7,812 bases of DNA. Origin: a virus (lineage: Duplodnaviria > Heunggongvirae > Uroviricota > Caudoviricetes). Position 1 is the first letter of the stretch. Every line of letters starts with the position of its first letter. The DNA lies in the IMG/VR virus record IMGVR_UViG_2724679140_000010, positions 1 to 7,812 of that record; one strand, 5' to 3'. Below are positions 1 through 7,812 of this stretch, piece after piece. The translations under genes and the position numbers were made by a program. The notes under the pieces were generated by a model. The model searched no databases and was not told where the DNA came from. It saw only the letters and a program-made list of their open reading frames with translations.

Positions 1-154
1 AACTTAACTGATATCCCTTTTTACGGATAAAGGTATTCAAGCCTGACACATCATGCGCTGTATCGTCGTCGTATTCCCGTATTAACAGAGACCGTAGCCC
101 GACGGGGAACTCCTTCTGCGCGAGTGTGCGGTAATAATCAAAAACGATGCGCAC
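1..154 (-). CDS. Possible 5' part of a minus-strand ORF running off the window start (hypothetical protein); start codon uncertain
   Basis: Reverse-complement frame is open for 49+ codons from the window edge, bounded upstream by a stop (TTA on + strand at 161-163). N-terminal translation is (V)RIVFDYYRTLAQKEFPVGLRSLLIREYDDDTAHDVSGLNTFIRKKGYQLS. Only a GTG start (+152-154) is available and there is no Shine-Dalgarno. An open frame of this length has roughly a 10% chance of arising by chance. Confidence 0.2.
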   Translation of the reverse strand, partial: MRIVFDYYRTLAQKEFPVGLRSLLIREYDDDTAHDVSGLNTFIRKKGYQLS

Positions 155-189
155 CGGGTTTTAGTGTGCTGACGGACGCAGGTTTACCC

Positions 190-669
190 TCATAGTCGCT
201 TTTCCGGTGCGATGGTGGAAGAAACCGGAATAATGAATTGTGAATGCAAAATGTGGTTTCTTACTGAGTAATACTGGCAGTGTTTTCTGTTTACATCCAG
301 AACATATTTAAAGATGCCTGCACGGGAAAGAGTAAAGTGGCTCCGGAAGAAGGGTATGTTTCCGGATAAATGTTTTTTTATAACCAGTTTTGTCCAGATA
401 TTATTTGACCTGTGGTTTATATAAGCAGATCTTTTTTGGGGCTGTACCGTGATCATACTTTGATTATGTGTGGTAAACCTTATATTCCCTGTTGACAGAA
501 AGTAAAAACAATGCGAGATGCCATTTTTATTAAGGTAATCAGTAACGGAAATAATATCATTATCGTGTGATGAAATAAGCAACGATATAACAGAGGTTAG
601 CCGACTATTCTCTGTGGAAACACAATCTGGTGGTGATAAATCTGAATGAGTTATGTAAAAATTGAACAT
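190..669 (-). CDS. Hypothetical 159-aa ORF in the AT-rich right-end region; doubtful as a real gene
   Basis: A 480-nt open frame is statistically unusual in ~35% GC DNA. However, the translation is Ser/His/Asn/Ile/Thr-rich with almost no Glu or Ala, there is no Shine-Dalgarno before the ATG at 669, and I recognise no family. Confidence 0.2.
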   Translation of the reverse strand: MFNFYITHSDLSPPDCVSTENSRLTSVISLLISSHDNDIISVTDYLNKNGISHCFYFLSTGNIRFTTHNQSMITVQPQKRSAYINHRSNNIWTKLVIKKHLSGNIPFFRSHFTLSRAGIFKYVLDVNRKHCQYYSVRNHILHSQFIIPVSSTIAPEKRL

Positions 670-1077
670 GTAAAAAGATGGTGTTTAACTGAAGGTATAG
701 TACTGCTGGAAAATAATAAACTGAAAAGTGAATGTCTATTAGTTATTTCCGCATGGTAAATCAGAGGTATTGTTTTCTTGCTAATTTATTAAAGTGATAA
801 GTCTTATCTTGATTTTAGATATAAACTTTTATCAGGCCTTATCAACTTACATCTTCAGTATTGGAGGCAGTGCCAGTTACGTAAGGACGCAATGCCTGGT
901 ATTTAAGCGAAGTGATCGACTGGATAAATAATATTCCTCGCGCTTCTGAATGTTGCCGTGTTCCTGTGCCAAAAAAGCCAGATGTGCACTATGCCTCAAT
1001 ATTGAGCGTGTACGCCGTAATGCACGGGATGGCCGCTATAAGCTGATTGGTTGATGAATTTAGGCCCGCTCTGGCTG

Positions 1078-1092
1078 GCGGGTCCTTTCCGG
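1078..1092. other. cosQ-like element (packaging termination signal) about 30 bp upstream of cosN
   Basis: GGGTCCTTTCCGG lies about 20-30 bp upstream of cosN. As I recall, lambda has the same sequence at the same position in its right end (...ACGGGTCCTTTCCGGTGATCCGACAGGTTACG). Confidence 0.5.
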
Positions 1093-1109
1093 CGATCCGG
1101 CAGGTTACG

Positions 1110-1121
1110 GGGCGGCGACCT
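1110..1121. other. cosN: 12-nt cohesive-end sequence GGGCGGCGACCT, the terminase nicking site
   Basis: Exact match to the lambda 12-nt cohesive end, preceded by CAGGTTACG (lambda right-end terminus) and followed by CGCGGGTTTTCGCTATTTATGAAAATTTTCCGG (lambda left-end start). It sits about 185 bp upstream of the terminase small subunit gene, as in lambda. Confidence 0.85.
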
Positions 1122-1154
1122 CGCGGGTTTTCGCTATTTATGAAAATTTTCCGG

Positions 1155-1270
1155 GATCCATGTCCGGTTTCTCTTCAGGTTAACTATATGAAAAATATAG
1201 AAACAGGTTTTCTGTGAACCGGACGTGAACAAAAAATAAACATGTAAGCCGGACATGACCGGTTTTGTTG
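1155..1270. promoter_or_regulatory. cosB-like region: three candidate small-terminase binding repeats around an AT-rich, IHF-site-like segment
   Basis: The motif GTCCGGTTT and variants occur at 1162-1170 (forward), 1218-1225 (reverse, AACCGGAC), 1250-1256 (reverse, GCCGGAC) and 1258-1266 (forward, GACCGGTTT). They are spaced about 50, 110 and 150 bp downstream of cosN, mirroring the lambda R3/I1/R2/R1 layout. An AT-rich segment at 1176-1210 contains the inverted repeat CTATAT-gaaaa-ATATAG. Exact site boundaries are not determinable from sequence alone. Confidence 0.5.
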
Positions 1271-1304
1271 TGATTGTGAGGTGAGAGTTTTTGCGAGGTG
1301 AGGA

Positions 1305-1814
1305 GTGGCTACGCAGACTGAAGTTGCCAGGCATTTAAGTCTGACCGATCGCCAGCTTCGCAGATTGCAGAAATTGCCGGGTGCCCCGATATCGAATAAG
1401 CGAGGGCAACTGGATCTGGATGCCTGGCGCGATTTTTACATATCGTATCTGAGGAGAAGTAAAAACGATGTGCCTGGTGGCGATAGCGAAGACGACTATG
1501 AGGAGAAATTGCTTATTGCCAGATGGGAACTGACAGCAGAACAGGCTGTTACACAGCAGTTAAAAAATGAGGTGTCAAAAGGAAAACTTATTGACACCGG
1601 GTTCTGTATTTTTGCCCTCAGTAAGCTGGCAATGGCGTTATCCAGTACGCTTGATTCCATCCCTTTATCCATGCAGCGACAGTTTCCTGATTTAACACCG
1701 CGCCATCTTGACCATCTGAAAACCCTTATTGCGAAGGGGGCAAATCAGTGTGCGCGGGCGGGGGATAAATTACCGGATTTACTCGATGAATATATCAGAG
1801 CAACAACTGAATAA
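1305..1814 (+). CDS. nu1: Terminase small subunit (lambda Nu1-like), 169 aa, GTG start
   Basis: C-terminal half (…TGFCIFALSKLAMALSSTLDSIPLSMQRQFPDLTPRHLDHLK…LPDLLDEYI) resembles lambda gpNu1 as I recall it. The N-terminus has a helix-turn-helix-like segment (TQTEVARHLSLTDRQLRRL) but differs from lambda. GTG at 1305 has GAGG 6 nt upstream and an in-frame stop immediately upstream. It sits between cos and the large terminase gene. Confidence 0.88.
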   Translation: MATQTEVARHLSLTDRQLRRLQKLPGAPISNKRGQLDLDAWRDFYISYLRRSKNDVPGGDSEDDYEEKLLIARWELTAEQAVTQQLKNEVSKGKLIDTGFCIFALSKLAMALSSTLDSIPLSMQRQFPDLTPRHLDHLKTLIAKGANQCARAGDKLPDLLDEYIRATTE

Positions 1815-3714
1815 TATGATGAGCGCTGTCACAACAGCATTACAGCCCCTGATAAGGGCATTGCCGGTGACGCCAGTTGAATGGGCTGATCAAAATTATT
1901 ATCTGCCGAAAGAATCTTCATATGGTGAGGGAGAATGGAAAACGCTGCCATTCCAGATCGCCATCATGAACAGCATGGGGAATGATCAGATCCGCACTGT
2001 TAATCTGATTAAATCTGCCCGTGTTGGCTATACAAAGATGTTGCTGGGGGTGGTCGGATATTTTATTGAGCATAAATCCCGAAACAGTCTGCTTTTTCAG
2101 CCCACGGATTCTGCCGCTGAAGATTTTATGAAGTCTCACGTGGAGGCGACGATTCGGGACGTGCCATGCCTGAAAGACCTTTCCCCATGGCTGGGTCGTA
2201 AACATCGTGACAATACTCTCACGCTGAAACGCTTTTCATCGGGTGTGGGCTTCTGGTGCCTGGGCGGCGCTGCCGCCAAAAACTACCGTGAAAAATCCGT
2301 GGACGTGGTCTGCTATGACGAACTTTCCTCGTTCGAGCCGGATGTCGAAAAAGAGGGCTCGCCAACCCTGCTGGGGGATAAGCGTATTGAGGGCTCTGTA
2401 TGGCCAAAATCCATTCGCGGCTCGACGCCTAAAATCAAAGGCTCCTGCCAGATCGAAAAAGCCGCTAACGAGTCGGCACATTTCATGCGTTTTTATGTGC
2501 CCTGTCCGCACTGTGGGGAGGAGCAGTATCTGAAATTTGGCGATGATGCCTCGCTTTTCGGTCTTAAGTGGGAGAAGAATAAGCCAGAAAGTGTTTTCTA
2601 CCTTTGTGAGCATCATGGCTGTGTGATCCATCAGTCTGAGCTTGAACAGAATAACGGGCGGTGGATCTGTGAAAACACGGGCATGTGGACACGTGACGGC
2701 CTGACATTTTACAGCGCGGGTGATGAGGAGATGCCGCCACCGCGATCCATCACTTTCCACATCTGGACGGCCTATAGCCCGTTTACCACCTGGGTACAGA
2801 TAGTCTATGACTGGCTGGATGCGCTGAAAGATCCCAACGGCCTGAAAACCTTTGTGAACACCACGCTGGGCGAGACCTGGGAAGAGGCCGTGGGCGAAAA
2901 ACTCGATCACCAGGTTCTGATGGATAAGGTCGTGCATTACACGGCGGCGGTACCTGACCGGGTGGTTTATCTGACGGCGGGCATTGACTCGCAGCGAAAC
3001 CGTTTTGAGATGTATGTCTGGGGATGGGCACCGGGAGAGGAAGCTTTTCTGGTGGATAAAATCATCATTATGGGGCGTCCTGATGAGGAAGAGACGCTGT
3101 TACGTGTGGACGCGGTGATTAACAAAAAATACCGCCATGCGGATGGCACCGAAATGACTATTTCCCGTGTCTGCTGGGACACCGGGGGGATCGATGGCGA
3201 AATCGTTTACCAGAGGTCAAAAAAACACGGTGTTTTCCGTGTGCTACCGGTAAAAGGTGCGTCTGTCTATGGCAAGCCGGTGATCACCATGCCGAAAACC
3301 CGCAATCAGCGGGGCGTGTATCTGTGTGAAGTGGGGACGGACACCGCAAAAGAAATTCTCTATGCCCGTATGAAAGCCAGTCCCACACCTGCAGATGAAG
3401 CCACATCGTATGCCATCCGTTTTCCTGATAATCCGGAGATTTTTTCGCAGACAGAGGCGCAGCAACTGGTCGCGGAAGAGCTTGTGGAGAAGTGGGAAAA
3501 AGGAAAGATGCGCCTGCTGTGGGATAACAAAAAGCGGCGTAACGAAGCGCTGGACTGCCTGGTGTATGCCTACGCAGCATTACGTGTGTCCGTGCAACGC
3601 TGGCAGCTTGATCTGGCTGTACTGGCAAAATCCCGGGAAGAAGAGACGACCCGGCCAACCCTTGAAGAACTGGCAGCGAAGCTGTCCGGAGGAGTGAATG
3701 GTAACAGTCGCTGA
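1786..3714 (+). CDS. A: Terminase large subunit (lambda gpA-like), 642 aa
   Basis: Matches lambda gpA along its length as recalled: MNIS… start, conserved NYYLPKE segment, Walker-A-like KSARVGYT, CPHCGEEQYLKFGD, TAYSPFTTWVQIV, FVNTTLGETWE, LTAGIDSQ, KKRRNEALDC. Start placed at the ATG giving MNISEQQ (19 codons inside the longer ORF in the track). Overlaps the nu1 3' end by 29 nt. Confidence 0.95.
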   Translation: MNISEQQLNNMMSAVTTALQPLIRALPVTPVEWADQNYYLPKESSYGEGEWKTLPFQIAIMNSMGNDQIRTVNLIKSARVGYTKMLLGVVGYFIEHKSRNSLLFQPTDSAAEDFMKSHVEATIRDVPCLKDLSPWLGRKHRDNTLTLKRFSSGVGFWCLGGAAAKNYREKSVDVVCYDELSSFEPDVEKEGSPTLLGDKRIEGSVWPKSIRGSTPKIKGSCQIEKAANESAHFMRFYVPCPHCGEEQYLKFGDDASLFGLKWEKNKPESVFYLCEHHGCVIHQSELEQNNGRWICENTGMWTRDGLTFYSAGDEEMPPPRSITFHIWTAYSPFTTWVQIVYDWLDALKDPNGLKTFVNTTLGETWEEAVGEKLDHQVLMDKVVHYTAAVPDRVVYLTAGIDSQRNRFEMYVWGWAPGEEAFLVDKIIIMGRPDEEETLLRVDAVINKKYRHADGTEMTISRVCWDTGGIDGEIVYQRSKKHGVFRVLPVKGASVYGKPVITMPKTRNQRGVYLCEVGTDTAKEILYARMKASPTPADEATSYAIRFPDNPEIFSQTEAQQLVAEELVEKWEKGKMRLLWDNKKRRNEALDCLVYAYAALRVSVQRWQLDLAVLAKSREEETTRPTLEELAAKLSGGVNGNSR

Positions 3715-3901
3715 ACTGCAGGCGCTGCGTCAGGCGCGTCTTGATTTATTAACCGGTAAACGGGTGGTGTCGGTCCAGAAAGATGGTCGCAGAATTGAAT
3801 ATACGGCAGCCTCTCTGGATGAGCTTAATCGTGCTATCAATGATGCGGAGTCGGTACTGGGGACAACCCGCCGCCGTCGCCCGCTGGGAGTGAGGTTATG
3901 A
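3698..3901 (+). CDS. W: Head-tail joining / head completion protein (lambda gpW-like), 67 aa
   Basis: The sequence …LTGKRVVSVQKDGRRIEYTAASLDELNRAI…TRRRRP resembles lambda gpW (68 aa) as recalled. GGAGG lies upstream of the ATG. Stop overlaps the B start as ATGA. Confidence 0.88.
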   Translation: MVTVAELQALRQARLDLLTGKRVVSVQKDGRRIEYTAASLDELNRAINDAESVLGTTRRRRPLGVRL

Positions 3902-5490
3902 AACGAACGCCAGTCCTGATTGATGTGAACGGCGTTCCGCTTCGTGAGAGTCTCAGCTACAACGGGGGCGGCGCAGGATTTGGCGGGCAAATGGCCGAGT
4001 GGTTACCACCGGCGCAGGGTGTTGATGCTGCCCTGCTGCCTGCGTTGCGTCTGGGGAATGCCCGTGCAGATGATCTGGTACGCAATAACGGTATAGCGGC
4101 CAATGCGGTGGCCCTGCATAAGGATCACATTGTCGGGCACATGTTTCTTATTAGTTACCGTCCGAACTGGCGCTGGCTTGGGATGCGGGAGTCCGCGGCA
4201 AAAATCTTTGTCGATGAGGTGGAGGCGGCCTGGTCGGAATACGCGGAAGGAATGTTTGGCGAGATCGATGTGGAAGGGAAACGCACCTTTACGGAATTTA
4301 TCCGTGAAGGTGTGGGCGTTCATGCATTTAACGGTGAAATCTTTGTGCAGCCGGTCTGGGATACGGAAACCACACGGTTATTCCGCACGCGTTTTAAAGC
4401 CGTGAGCCCTAAACGGGTGGACACGCCGGGACACGGTATGGGTAACCGTTTCCTGCGGGCCGGGGTGGAAGTCGATCGGTATGGACGGGCCGTTGCGTAC
4501 CATATCTGTGAGGATGATTTTCCGTTCTCTGGTCGTGGACGATGGGAACGGATCCCGCGTGAACTTCCCACCGGGCGTCCGGCCATGCTGCATATTTTCG
4601 AGCCGGTTGAGGACGGGCAGACCCGTGGGGCTAATCAGTTTTACAGCGTCATGGAACGGCTGAAAATGCTCGATTCCCTGCAGACCACGCAGCTTCAGTC
4701 GGCCATAGTGAAGGCGATGTATGCAGCGACGATTGAAAGTGAACTCGATACCGAAAAGGCCTTTGAATATATCGCGGGTGCACCGCAGAGTCAGCAGGAT
4801 AATCCGCTCATTAATATTCTGGAGAAGTTCACCCGCTGGTATGACACGAATAACGTGACGCTGGGCGGTGTCAAAATTCCGCACCTTTTCCCCGGGGATG
4901 ATTTGAAACTGCAGACTGCGCAGGATTCAGATAATGGATTTTCTGCGCTTGAACAGGCGCTGCTGCGGTATATCGCCGCCGGTCTTGGTGTTTCCTACGA
5001 ACAGTTGTCCCGTGATTACTCGAAGGTCAGTTACTCAAGTGCCCGTGCCTCAGCCAATGAGTCGTGGCGTTATTTTATGGGGCGACGAAAATTTATTGCG
5101 TCCCGGCTGGCCACGCAGATGTTTTCCTGCTGGCTGGAAGAGGCGCTTCTTCGGGGGATTATTCGTCCGCCACGGGCGCGTTTTGATTTTTATCAGGCGC
5201 GTTCAGCCTGGTCACGGGCAGAGTGGATTGGCTCCGGAAGAATGGCCATTGATGGACTCAAGGAGGTTCAGGAGTCGGTGATGCGCATTGAGGCCGGACT
5301 GAGCACGTATGAGAAAGAGCTGGCGCTGATGGGTGAGGATTATCAGGACATTTTCCGCCAGCAGGTCAGGGAATCTGCAGAGCGGGAAAAAGCCGGGCTC
5401 TCACGCCCGGTGTGGATAGCGCAGGCGTATCAGCAGCAGATAGCGGAGAGTCGCAGGCCGGAAGAGGAGACAACACCACGTGAGACGTAA
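3898..5490 (+). CDS. B: Portal protein (lambda gpB-like), 530 aa
   Basis: Size (530 aa vs lambda 533) and position immediately after W, translationally coupled via ATGA overlap, fit a lambda-type portal. The long ORF has coherent codon usage. Confidence 0.9.
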   Translation: MKRTPVLIDVNGVPLRESLSYNGGGAGFGGQMAEWLPPAQGVDAALLPALRLGNARADDLVRNNGIAANAVALHKDHIVGHMFLISYRPNWRWLGMRESAAKIFVDEVEAAWSEYAEGMFGEIDVEGKRTFTEFIREGVGVHAFNGEIFVQPVWDTETTRLFRTRFKAVSPKRVDTPGHGMGNRFLRAGVEVDRYGRAVAYHICEDDFPFSGRGRWERIPRELPTGRPAMLHIFEPVEDGQTRGANQFYSVMERLKMLDSLQTTQLQSAIVKAMYAATIESELDTEKAFEYIAGAPQSQQDNPLINILEKFTRWYDTNNVTLGGVKIPHLFPGDDLKLQTAQDSDNGFSALEQALLRYIAAGLGVSYEQLSRDYSKVSYSSARASANESWRYFMGRRKFIASRLATQMFSCWLEEALLRGIIRPPRARFDFYQARSAWSRAEWIGSGRMAIDGLKEVQESVMRIEAGLSTYEKELALMGEDYQDIFRQQVRESAEREKAGLSRPVWIAQAYQQQIAESRRPEEETTPRET

Positions 5491-6985
5491 TCTTTCACAC
5501 ATTATTGCAGCAGCATTCAATGAACCGCTGCTTCTGGAGCCCGCCTATGCGCGGGTTTTCTTTTGCGCGCTGGGGCGTGAGATGGGTGCGACAAGTCTTT
5601 CGGTACCGCAACAGCAGGTACAGCTTGATGCTCCCGGGATGCTGGCTGAAACGGACGAGTACATGGCCGGAGGAAAACGACCGGCCCGTGTTTACAGGGT
5701 GGTGAATGGTATTGCTGTACTGCCGGTGACAGGCACGCTGGTGCACCGGCTGGGGGGGATGCGGCCATTTTCCGGAATGACAGGTTATGACGGCATTGTC
5801 GCCTGTCTTCAGCAGGCAATGTCGGATACCCAGGTGCGGGGTGTACTGCTGGATATTGACAGCCCTGGTGGGCAGGCCGCCGGCGCGTTTGACTGCGCTG
5901 ACATGATTTACCGCCTCCGGCAGCAGAAGCCTGTCTGGGCGCTGTGCAATGACACGGCCTGTTCTGCCGCAATGCTGCTGGCATCGGCCTGTTCCCGACG
6001 GCTGATTACCCAGACATCACGTATCGGCTCCATTGGTGTGATGATGAGCCATGTCAGCTATGCCGGTCATCTGGCGCAGGCCGGTGTTGATATCACGCTT
6101 ATTTACGCCGGATCGCACAAGGTGGATGGCAATCAGTTTGAATCCCTGCCGTCAGAGGTTCGCCAGGACATGCAGCAGCGCATTGATGCGGCGCGCCGGA
6201 TGTTTGCTGAAAAAGTGGCGATGTATACCGGTTTATCTGTGGATACGGTTATGGGGACAGAGGCCGCTGTTTTTGAAGGGCAGTCAGGTATTGAGGCCGG
6301 GCTGGCGGATGAATTAATCAATGCGTCGGATGCCATCAGCGTGATGGCCGCGACGCTGAACACACATGATACAGGAGGCACTATGCCGCAATTAACTGCA
6401 ACGGAAGCCGTCGCGCAGGAGAACCAGCGAGTGATGGGGATCCTGACATGCCAGGAAGCGAAAGGACGTGAACAGCTTGCCTCGATGCTGGCAGGACAAC
6501 AGGGCATGAGCGTTGAGCAGGCCCGGGCGATTCTGGCAGCGGCGGCACCGCAGCAGCCGGAGGCATCCCCGCTGAGTGAAGCCGATCGCATTATGGCGTG
6601 TGAAGAAGCGAAAGGTCGTGAACAACTGGCTGCAACGCTGGCGGCGATGCCGGATATGACAGTGGAAAAAGCCCGCCCGATCCTGGCTGCTTCACCACGG
6701 GCGGATGCCGGACTATCACTCCGTGATCAAATCATGGCCCTGGATGAGGCGAAAGGGGCTGAGGCGCAGGCTGAAAAACTGGCGGCCTGCCCGGGGATGT
6801 CCGTGGAGAATGCCCGGGCTGTACTGGCTGCTGCATCAGGTAAAGCTGAACCAGTCTCTGCCTCCACGACATCCATGTTTGAACGTTTCATGGCGAACCA
6901 TTCACCGGCAGCGGTGCAGGGCGGCATGTCACAAACGTCAGCAGACGGTGATGCGGACGTAAAAATGCTCATGGCCATGCCATAA
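5480..6985 (+). CDS. C: Prohead protease / scaffold fusion protein (lambda gpC-like, S49-type serine peptidase domain), 501 aa, GTG start
   Basis: N-terminus NLSHIIAAAFNEPLLLEPAYARVFFCAL and the segments GMTGYDGIVACLQQA, AGAFDCADMI, KPVWALCNDTACSAAMLLASA, IGVMMSHV, ITLIYAGSHKVDGN resemble lambda gpC as recalled. GTG at 5480 is preceded by GAGGAGA and overlaps the B stop by 11 nt. Confidence 0.88.
   Translation: MRRNLSHIIAAAFNEPLLLEPAYARVFFCALGREMGATSLSVPQQQVQLDAPGMLAETDEYMAGGKRPARVYRVVNGIAVLPVTGTLVHRLGGMRPFSGMTGYDGIVACLQQAMSDTQVRGVLLDIDSPGGQAAGAFDCADMIYRLRQQKPVWALCNDTACSAAMLLASACSRRLITQTSRIGSIGVMMSHVSYAGHLAQAGVDITLIYAGSHKVDGNQFESLPSEVRQDMQQRIDAARRMFAEKVAMYTGLSVDTVMGTEAAVFEGQSGIEAGLADELINASDAISVMAATLNTHDTGGTMPQLTATEAVAQENQRVMGILTCQEAKGREQLASMLAGQQGMSVEQARAILAAAAPQQPEASPLSEADRIMACEEAKGREQLAATLAAMPDMTVEKARPILAASPRADAGLSLRDQIMALDEAKGAEAQAEKLAACPGMSVENARAVLAAASGKAEPVSASTTSMFERFMANHSPAAVQGGMSQTSADGDADVKMLMAMP
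6383..6985 (+). CDS. nu3: Candidate nested in-frame scaffolding protein (lambda Nu3-like), 200 aa, sharing frame and stop with C
   Basis: In-frame ATG at 6383 (C residue 302, MPQLTATEAV…) is preceded by a perfect AGGAGG at 6373-6378 with 4-nt spacing. In lambda, nu3 is translated in-frame from within C. The exact start is an inference. Confidence 0.5.
   Translation: MPQLTATEAVAQENQRVMGILTCQEAKGREQLASMLAGQQGMSVEQARAILAAAAPQQPEASPLSEADRIMACEEAKGREQLAATLAAMPDMTVEKARPILAASPRADAGLSLRDQIMALDEAKGAEAQAEKLAACPGMSVENARAVLAAASGKAEPVSASTTSMFERFMANHSPAAVQGGMSQTSADGDADVKMLMAMP
6437..6860 (+). repeat. Three tandem in-frame repeats (~141-150 nt, ~47-50 aa each) within the C/Nu3 coding region
   Basis: Peptide units are RVMGILTCQEAKGREQLASMLAGQQGMSVEQARAILAAAAPQ, RIMACEEAKGREQLAATLAAMPDMTVEKARPILAASPRADAG and QIMALDEAKGAEAQAEKLAACPGMSVENARAVLAAASGKAE. 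The DNA anchor GAAGCGAAAGG is at 6455 and 6605, and GAGGCGAAAGG at 6746. Units have diverged at the DNA level, so the duplication is not recent. Confidence 0.75.
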
Positions 6986-7021
6986 AGCCACTGCTGATCA
7001 TCAATATGAGGTTTTAATAAT

Positions 7022-7369
7022 ATGGTAACGAAAACCATCACTGAACAGCGTGCGGAAGTACGTATTTTTTCCGGTAATGATCCGGCTCATACAGCCACAG
7101 GTAGCAGCGGGATTTCCTCGGCGACACCGGCTCTGACGCCTCTGATGCTGGATGAGGCCACCGGGAAACTGGTGGTCTGGGACGGACAGAAAGCCGGTGG
7201 TGCGGTTGGCATACTGGTACTGCCGCTTGAAGGCACAGAGACGGTACTGACGTATTACAAGTCGGGGACTTTTGCGACGGAGGCAATTCACTGGCCTGAG
7301 AGTGTGGATGAACACAAAAAGGCCAACGCCTTTTCCGGCAGTGCCCTGAGTCATGCGGCGCTGCCGTAA
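7022..7369 (+). CDS. D: Head decoration protein (lambda gpD-like), 115 aa
   Basis: The segments NDPAHTAT, TPLMLD, KLVVWDG, AVGIL and YYKSGTF resemble lambda gpD (110 aa) as recalled. GAGG lies about 10 nt upstream of the ATG. Position between C and E matches lambda. Confidence 0.9.
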   Translation: MVTKTITEQRAEVRIFSGNDPAHTATGSSGISSATPALTPLMLDEATGKLVVWDGQKAGGAVGILVLPLEGTETVLTYYKSGTFATEAIHWPESVDEHKKANAFSGSALSHAALP

Positions 7370-7377
7370 CACATTAT

Positions 7378-7397
7378 CAGGCCACTGCGGTGGCCTG
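7378..7397 (+). terminator. GC-rich stem-loop in the D-E intergenic region (possible partial terminator or RNA-stability element)
   Basis: CAGGCCAC-tgcg-GTGGCCTG forms a perfect 8-bp stem with a 4-nt loop, 9 nt after the D stop, followed by ACTTATTTCTG (T-rich but not a clean U-tract). Confidence 0.35.
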
Positions 7398-7425
7398 ACT
7401 TATTTCTGAATGAAGGAACTGATTT

Positions 7426-7812
7426 ATGGGATTGTTTACGACCCGCCAGTTGCTCGGTTATACCGAACAAAAAGTTAAATTTCGTGCGCTGTTTCTGGAG
7501 CTGTTTTTCCGCCGTACGGTGAATTTCCAGACCGAAGAGGTGATGCTGGACAAAATTACCGGAAAAACGCCGGTGGCGGCCTATGTCTCCCCGGTTGTTG
7601 AAGGAAAAGTGCTGCGTCATCGTGGTGGTGAAACCCGCGTGTTGCGTCCGGGCTACGTCAAGCCGAAACACGAATTTAATTACCAGCAGGCGGTTGAGCG
7701 CCTTCCTGGTGAAGATCCATCTCAACTGAACGATCCGGCTTACCGCCGTCTGCGTATCATTACCGATAACCTCAAACAGGAAGAGCACGCGATTGTCCAG
7801 GTGGAAGAAATG
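7426..7812 (+). CDS. E: Major capsid protein (lambda gpE-like), N-terminal 129 codons; continues past the window end
   Basis: MGLFTTRQLLGYTEQKVKF…LFLELFFRR…AAYVSPVV…RPGYVKPKHE…NDPAYRRLRII…VQVEEM resembles the lambda gpE N-terminus as recalled. AGGA lies 8 nt upstream of the ATG at 7426. The frame is open to the window edge. Confidence 0.93.
   Translation, partial: MGLFTTRQLLGYTEQKVKFRALFLELFFRRTVNFQTEEVMLDKITGKTPVAAYVSPVVEGKVLRHRGGETRVLRPGYVKPKHEFNYQQAVERLPGEDPSQLNDPAYRRLRIITDNLKQEEHAIVQVEEM

Follow-up and report, generated by a model that had tools for sequence, protein, structure and literature searches.

A lambda-type cos site whose cosB repeats and small terminase point to a distinct packaging specificity in a lambdoid prophage

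Which DNA fills the phage heads after joint induction, in one cell, of several lambdoid prophages or of a prophage with a satellite is decided by packaging specificity. The question raised by the locus described here, a stretch of 7812 bp from a tailed-phage genome (IMG/VR record IMGVR_UViG_2724679140_000010, positions 1 to 7,812; hereafter the window), is which specificity is encoded by its cohesive-end (cos) site and its small terminase subunit, TerS. Specificity is set by the N-terminal domain of TerS together with the R sites of cosB, for which phage 21 provides the classic case (PMC9026076). Only three specificities, those of lambda, 21 and N15, were documented among lambda-like cos phages in a 2015 paper from the Feiss laboratory, where this diversity was called 'modest' (PMC4669245). 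The principle is textbook and the mechanism is not surprising. Positions 1078-1304 of the window are likely to form a complete lambda-type cos site in which the cosQ and cosN of lambda are joined to a cosB of a different specificity class, read by a TerS of a type referred to here as MATQ.

The part of the site that is cut is lambda's. Sites are numbered so that lambda bp N is window position 1109+N, and their coordinates are collected in Table 1. In a megablast search of 50,697 phage records, positions 1078-1154 (cosQ, cosN and bp 1-45) aligned with lambda and many lambda-like phages at 97.4-98.7% identity over 76-78 nt, and this similarity ends at 1154. Beyond that point, through cosB and terS, only five records align, those of Escherichia phages PhiR12_1 to PhiR12_5 (96.8%). 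An earlier note on the window had described its cosN and cosQ as essentially those of lambda, which the identity over this block bears out, with both the cohesive-end sequence GGGCGGCGACCT and the GGGTCCT of cosQ being present.

The same note had proposed that the repeats downstream of this block are not of the lambda type, and this holds as well. With up to two mismatches allowed, CATGTCCGGTTT occurs four times in the 7812 bp, where 0.71 copies are expected, and all four copies lie within 1159-1265; four copies were reached in 2 of 200 shuffled sequences. The exact 9-mer GTCCGGTTT occurs once, in the R3-equivalent, and the core common to the repeats is TCCGGTT. The lambda R consensus CGTTTCC(G/T)TTCT, again with up to two mismatches, has no match in cosB and two chance-level matches in the window (at 4272 and 4517), and the phage 21 R type (C/T)(A/G)TGTCGG has no match anywhere in the window. 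Alignment of the cosB regions places the repeats at the R3 and R2 positions of lambda and 21, whereas their sequences do not match those of lambda. The window possesses the layout of a complex cosB, with R3 about 50 bp from the left end followed by a site resembling those bound by integration host factor (IHF) and by an inverted R2. The strict IHF consensus WATCAANNNNTTR, with up to one mismatch, finds nothing in cosB, and the IHF-like site appears only when two mismatches are allowed. Support for this site comes from the positions of the IHF sites in lambda and 21 and from relatives which have perfect matches at the same position.

Conservation of the repeats was assessed in an E. coli-family set of 80 IMG/VR loci with a 96-98% identical N-terminal TerS domain, which yielded 44 distinct upstream sequences including the window. 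R3 is invariant in all 44 variants, and the TCCGGTT cores of the three main sites contain only two variable columns. Over their full length the R sites have 6 variable columns in 36, as against 22 in 47 for the spacers (Fisher p = 0.005). The cosQ sequence is unchanged in 42 of the 44, the remaining two extracts beginning downstream of it, while the fourth copy of the repeat is mutated or lost in relatives L038, L043, L066, L077 and L089. The PhiR12 phages, which retain all of the sites, appear to be propagated phages since their records are phage genomes that name E. coli K-12 or E. coli C as the host; in PhiR12_1, for which the host is given as E. coli K-12 MG1655, the IHF-like site is retained together with R3, R2 and the third site.

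The spacing of the sites is retained in more distant enteric relatives, represented by TerS homologues from other E. coli and from Klebsiella, Salmonella, Citrobacter and Enterobacter that are 60-81% identical overall and in whose loci the spacers have diverged. The distance from the R3 core to the R2 core is exactly 54 bp in 11 of 11 enteric loci, and the best IHF-like match lies exactly at +18 from the R3 core in 10 of the 11, with 0-2 mismatches and a perfect YAANNNNTTGATW in four. Several enteric lineages have R3 and R2 only. Where the inverted third site is present, it lies 42 bp from R2 in Klebsiella and 30 bp from R2 in Enterobacter, the latter being the spacing found in the window.

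The protein which would read these sites is composed of two parts with different affinities. Residues 73-164 of TerS share 46% identity with lambda Nu1, and residues 64-166 share 40% with phage 21 gp1. The Pfam profile Phage_Nu1 (PF07471) matches with 67.4 bits against a cut-off of 30, the match being confined to residues 50-150 (profile positions 63-163). Profile positions 1-62 have no match in the protein, and a gpNu1-type DNA-binding domain is not recognisable in it by sequence. From residue 1 to about residue 60, BLASTP and tblastn found no similarity to lambda, 21, N15, phi80 or Gifsy-1, and the tblastn matches to N15, phi80 and Gifsy-1 were restricted to the C-terminal part. The earlier note had quoted the N-terminal translation correctly and had judged the Nu1 N-terminus to be unlike that of lambda; the alignment of small terminases agrees, since the similarity to lambda and phage 21 is confined to the C-terminal part. 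The note had also called the C-terminal half lambda-like, which is right as to homology and too strong if taken as near-identity.

A homologue of known structure for the N-terminal domain was sought by sequence and not found: phmmer with the full protein and hmmsearch with the domain profile gave chance matches only in the Protein Data Bank (PDB), such as those to a sigma-factor helix-turn-helix (HTH) and the eS10 winged helix, and recovered neither lambda TerS nor Rpp. Comparison of the domain family with the lambda, 21 and Gifsy-1 domains by hhalign gave a probability of 9.9%, so that homology to the lambda-type domain is not demonstrable by sequence. The AlphaFold2 model of the domain alone, built from an 18-sequence alignment, has a predicted local distance difference test (pLDDT) score of 80.7; residues 4-10, 15-22 and 38-54 form helices in it, and a wing separates the second helix from the third. 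The predicted domain is a MerR-like winged HTH to which RppC and lambda TerS are closest, and its three helices and wing can be superposed on the DNA-binding domain of lambda TerS. According to this model the fold of the MATQ domain is that of the gpNu1 DNA-binding domain, and the N-terminus of TerS, rather than being just a diverged lambda domain, belongs to a sequence family of its own for which that fold is predicted.

The MATQ domain is found well outside the enteric bacteria. In a pattern scan based on the alignment of N-terminal domains (consensus MATQxE[VI]AxH...R...L), it begins TerS-size proteins in Aeromonas, Pseudomonas, Azospirillum, one Rhodospirillaceae metagenome genome and assorted metagenome-assembled genomes, and it also occurs in Pseudomonas phage LPPA33 and Aeromonas phage phiARM81ld. 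A phmmer search of the full library with the 55-residue domain gave 42 representative clusters, in almost all of which the domain starts at residue 1 of a protein of 150-210 amino acids. The same search (P0105, P0121, P0129) returned a 2465-amino-acid protein which matches domain residues 8-50 in 19 stretches at 28% identity, as well as a 349-amino-acid protein which matches in 6 stretches, and the domain profile weakly matches the eS10/plectin-type winged helix in the PDB. These proteins may contain a similar winged-helix unit in repeated form, or the match may be spurious.

The TCCGGTT core accompanies the domain. Among distinct loci with both a GGGTCC cosQ and a [T/G]CCGGTT core, drawn from E. 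coli, Klebsiella, Salmonella, Citrobacter, Enterobacter, Pseudomonas, Aeromonas and metagenomes, among them one Rhodospirillaceae genome, the distance from cosQ to the core is 82-86 bp in 92 of 95. This narrow range corresponds to the strict spacing between cosN and R3 in lambda, which the Feiss laboratory reported to be critical (PMC9026076). The conserved core of the MATQ family, at bp 54-60, overlaps both the segment contacted by TerS in lambda, bp 55-63 (PMC9026076), and the most critical block of N15, bp 54-59 (PMC4669245).

Relatives from outside the enteric bacteria have a 'simple' cosB, in which TTCCGGTTCCGGTT or a sequence close to it lies immediately upstream of terS. The record of phiARM81ld starts with GGGCGTTAGACC and has the TTCCGGTTCCGGTT-type element at bp 55-68. 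Within terS many of these relatives contain an inverted AACCGGAA, located +172 relative to the start codon and separated from the upstream TTCCGGTTCCGGTT/R3 by 194-200 bp. It overlaps a Pro-Glu that is conserved although the rest of the linker varies; examples are LPPA33 (L003, positions 336-343), phiARM81ld (L004, 250-257) and many of L120-L161. By analogy, this element looks like a counterpart of the remote rR2 of N15, which is located about 200 bp from R3, while Monarch relatives of N15 have a complex cosB of the order R3-I1-R2-R1 (PMC4669245). In the N15/Monarch group a TerS domain family is likewise joined to a lambda-like C-terminal half, with both simple and complex cosB known (PMC4669245), and the MATQ family repeats this split.

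Comparison of 39 distinct domains indicates that one residue of the recognition helix and one base of the site change together. Domains with Arg20 (RQLRRLQK; E. coli, one Salmonella, Citrobacter, Enterobacter) are paired with ATGTCCGGTT sites, and where position 20 is Asn, Asp, Thr, Ser or Glu the corresponding base is almost always T, as in (T/C/G)TTCCGGTT. This pattern is suggestive of a contact between Arg20 of the recognition helix and the G at bp 53. The domain is also exchanged as a module in nature. Proteins P0054 and P0069 (E. coli and Klebsiella) are TerS chimeras with an N15/Monarch-type N-terminus, and the C-terminal part of P0054, starting at about residue 92, differs little from that of the window's TerS. 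These chimeras show recombination inside terS between the DNA-binding and TerL-binding parts, and P0054 is a natural counterpart of the lambda-21 chimeric TerS described previously (PMC9026076). The suggestion in the earlier note that the TerS DNA-binding domain varies together with cosB is supported in silico by the positions of the sites, the conservation of the repeats, the co-occurrence of domain and core, and this natural domain swapping.

Lambda and the window share a near-identical cosQ, cosN and bp 1-45, the start of R3, an IHF-like site, an inverted R2, a homologous C-terminal half of TerS, a gpA-type TerL and the predicted fold of the DNA-binding domain. In lambda, R3 occupies bp 53-64 (+), R2 bp 109-120 (-) and R1 bp 155-166 (+), with no extra copy; its best IHF-like 13-mer is at bp 79 (1 mismatch), and the 13-mer at bp 74, with 2 mismatches, has the same score as the window site at bp 72. 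The lambda R sequence is CGTTTCCKTTCT where the window has the TCCGGTT core, and the two DNA-binding domains lack detectable sequence similarity. The two systems also differ in that R1 of lambda is oriented as R3, whereas the conserved third site of the window is inverted and the weaker direct copy that overlaps it is lost in some relatives. An exact TCCGGTT does occur in lambda (L098), at bp 41-47, in the interval from cosN to the lambda R3 and 13 bp to the left of the MATQ-family core position. At bp 41-47 the window reads TCCGGGA, and other relatives vary there. This is probably coincidental, though it could matter for cross-recognition.

Phage 21 has the same architecture, with its R3 (bp 53-61, +) and R2 (bp 111-119, -) within 3 bp of those of the window (bp 50-60 and 108-118); its R1 lies at bp 153-161 (+), and again there is no extra copy. 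The IHF-like site of phage 21 is at bp 74 (the record annotates an IHF sequence at bp 75-85), within 2 bp of that of the window at bp 72. The phage 21 R sites (CGTGTCGG and CATGTCGG) contain one C fewer than the CATGTCCGG of the window and resemble it more closely than anything in lambda. The N-terminal domains are unrelated in sequence, the recognition helix being DRQLRRLQ in the window and PRTIERWQ in phage 21. N15 has a domain of the MAVLLNKSDMASSLGISVQAF type and an R3 of GAGGTTGTTGTT at bp 48-59 (PMC4669245), where the window has TCCATGTCCGGT and an unrelated domain. Despite its divergent domain, the N15 terminase packages lambda DNA (PMC4669245). A satellite-borne variant of packaging specificity is provided by the Rpp proteins of phage-inducible chromosomal islands (PICIs) (PMC6739421). 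These proteins of 135-153 amino acids lack the TerL-binding C-terminus and form heterodimers with the TerS of the helper phage, whereas the window encodes a complete TerS of 169 amino acids which, unlike the satellite-encoded Rpp, adjoins genes for terL, portal, protease, decoration and capsid proteins.

The sites, their geometry and conservation, the co-occurrence of domain and core, and the predicted fold lead one to infer TerS binding, IHF bending and packaging specificity at this locus. In the proposed mechanism, dimers of the MATQ domain would bind the TCCGGTT-core repeats, while TerS's C-terminal half would mediate self-assembly and binding of the gpA-type large subunit. R3 (bp 50-61) and the inverted R2, 54 bp apart, would be joined through an IHF-induced bend at the intervening site, with cooperativity contributed by the third, inverted site. 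From its place at R3, TerS would then set TerL in position for nicking cosN, which lies about 50 bp further left. The phage would package its own DNA and discriminate against that of lambda, 21 and N15, and vice versa; such mutual discrimination is expected because the recognition helix and the repeats match none of these three. On sequence grounds the specificity is probably distinct from those of lambda, 21 and N15.

It is possible, though unlikely, that this specificity is instead shared, wholly or in part, with phage 21. The CATGTCCGG of the window is a one-base variant of CATGTCGG, which might permit cross-recognition, the phage 21 R sites CGTGTCGGT, CATGTCGGA and CATGTCGGG lie at almost the same positions as those of the window, and the asymmetric cross-packaging between N15 and lambda offers a precedent for shared specificity (PMC4669245). 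In the best profile alignment, which is weak, Arg20 stands opposite Asn21 of lambda, which corresponds to Arg21 of phage 21 gp1. The two recognition helices differ at most positions, however, and the extra C shifts the half-site that is conserved in the family (TCCGGTT) relative to phage 21. The N-terminal part has no BLASTP similarity to phage 21 gp1, cosB has no blastn similarity to phage 21, and the window contains no YRTGTCGG.

Still less probable is the idea that the repeats are not TerS sites at all, being either neutral remnants or sites for a regulator or a satellite Rpp-like protein, with TerS bound elsewhere. The repeat motif tracks the family of the TerS N-terminal domain across Proteobacterial classes at a fixed distance from cosQ, and the repeats occupy the R3 and R2 positions of lambda and 21 and are conserved while their flanks vary. 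A short Rpp does not fit either, as the protein of the window is a full TerS with the Nu1 C-terminal half, encoded beside terL. That the inverted repeats act in RNA, as a hairpin or terminator of the late transcript upstream of terS, is highly improbable. A consensus scan did find two terminator-like hairpins, at 1246-1265 and 1151-1167, but the predicted RNA fold of 1150-1304 is ordinary (z = -1.35, with 20 of 200 shuffles folding at least as well), and the RNA-structure reading was rejected. Furthermore, the hairpin arm at 1254-1265 is lost in several relatives, R3 and R2 placed 54 bp apart around an A/T-rich IHF-like site constitute a DNA-bending layout, and termination immediately upstream of terS would shut off the downstream head genes.

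Several points weigh against the view that 1078-1304 is a complete cos site of a separate specificity. The support for it is entirely computational and consists of sequence comparison together with a structural prediction of moderate confidence (pLDDT about 81). The IHF-like site of the window has two mismatches to the consensus, and R2 of the window reads CACGTCCGGTTC rather than the family consensus CATGTCCGGTTC. The third site is inverted with respect to R1 of lambda, and the higher-order complex may differ from that of lambda. Since the Arg20 proteins nearly form one clade, the covariation of residue 20 with the base at bp 53 amounts to one or two independent evolutionary events. The cross-packaging between N15 and lambda (PMC4669245) means that a difference in sequence is no guarantee of full insulation. 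In addition, there are pseudogenes in the neighbourhood of the corresponding prophage of E. coli M8 (see below), and this copy may not be fully active.

The class is common in E. coli genomes, yet almost absent from deposited phage genomes. Of 5426 complete E. coli genomes, 1135 contain the cosB segment (1155-1304), which occurs at 1759 places in total, with as many as four in one genome and two in O157:H7 strains. Among the 50,697 phage records, sensitive blastn with cosB alone (1155-1304) matched the five PhiR12 phages and no others. Annotation of the class is generic ('terminase small subunit'). No description of the MATQ/TCCGGTT class was found in the openly searchable literature, including open-access papers from 2016 onward in which cosB and cosN are both named; in the same literature nothing was found on cos recognition in PhiR12, mEp332/ECOR13 or phiARM81ld. 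On balance, the evidence leans towards a fourth natural packaging specificity among lambda-like cos phages, one that would be insulated from those of lambda, 21 and N15 and be used by prophages that about 21% of the complete E. coli genomes carry, those of O157:H7 among them. The family would read a TCCGGTT core across several classes of Proteobacteria and may be split into two sub-specificities, Arg20 with G at bp 53 and Asn/Asp20 with T.

If so, the TCCGGTT core and the candidate Arg20-G contact constitute a defined, testable DNA-protein code, and the class allows one to predict between which prophages of the same cell DNA can be cross-packaged and between which it cannot. Co-resident prophages of the same specificity, of which a single genome may have up to four copies, could package one another's DNA. 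The prediction is relevant to how defective prophages and virulence genes are mobilised when a strain is polylysogenic.

Table 1. Features of the cos site and terminase genes, in window coordinates; bp values are in lambda numbering.
Feature	Position	Strand	Basis or remark
cosQ, GGGTCCT, lambda-type packaging termination signal	1080-1086	+	inside lambda-like block 1078-1154
Predicted cosN 12-nt cohesive-end sequence, GGGCGGCGACCT	1110-1121	+	same sequence as lambda and phage 21 over bp 1-12
bp 13-45, lambda-identical spacer from cosN to cosB	1122-1154	+	sequence comparison
R3-equivalent CATGTCCGGTTT, bp 50-61, core TCCGGTT bp 54-60; proposed critical TerS site	1159-1170	+	unchanged in 44 E. 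coli-family variants; R3 position of lambda/21
I1-like IHF site TAACTATATGAAA (bp 72-84), then A-tract	1181-1196	+	2 mismatches to YAANNNNTTGATW
R2-equivalent, inverted, CACGTCCGGTTC on - strand, bp 107-118	1216-1227	-	repeat scan
Third site (bp 137-148), in the inverted orientation of R2 and 30 bp from it; CATGTCCGGCTT on - strand	1246-1257	-	kept in all E. coli-family variants
Fourth, weaker copy CATGACCGGTTT, R3 orientation, bp 145-155	1254-1265	+	overlaps third site, the two forming a small palindrome
17-bp tandem duplication (TTGTGAGGTGAG / TTGCGAGGTGAG)	1274-1302	+	two GAGGTGAG Shine-Dalgarno-like boxes, the second serving the terS GTG start
terS (small terminase, 169 amino acids, GTG start)	1305-1814	+	open reading frame; same coordinates annotated by RefSeq in E. 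coli M8 prophage
TerS N-terminal DNA-binding domain, residues 1-55, MATQ type	1305-1469	+	predicted recognition helix, residues 15-22, encoded at 1347-1370
TerS Nu1-like C-terminal part, residues 73-164	1521-1796	+	sequence similarity
terL (gpA-type large terminase)	1786-3714	+	overlaps end of terS; RefSeq annotation in E. coli M8

Open reading frames and the RefSeq annotation of a matching prophage identify the window as the late-region junction of a lambdoid prophage. Positions 1100-1820 are 100% identical to prophages of mouse E. coli strains such as M8, in which RefSeq annotates lysis genes followed by genes for the terminase small subunit, the terminase large subunit, the head-tail joining protein, portal, S49 peptidase, decoration protein and major capsid protein; the open reading frames of the window concur. 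The order is that of lambda-like cos phages, with terS and an overlapping gpA-type terL followed by W, portal and head genes, and the first 200 residues of TerL are 68% identical to lambda gpA. The 17-bp duplication between cosB and terS is present as a single copy in relative L029.

A few minor features of the stretch were also observed. According to the RefSeq annotation of the identical M8 prophage, an intact DUF1398-family gene (190-669, -) is located between cos and the lysis genes, part of a helix-turn-helix regulator with a frameshift (885-1054, +) lies just upstream of cosQ, and two genes of the lysis region are marked partial. The S49 peptidase/gpC-type open reading frame at 5480-6985 contains, as judged from its translation, three tandem copies of a motif of about 35-40 amino acids (e.g. 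EAKGREQLASMLAGQQGMSVEQARAILAAA) in its C-terminal third.

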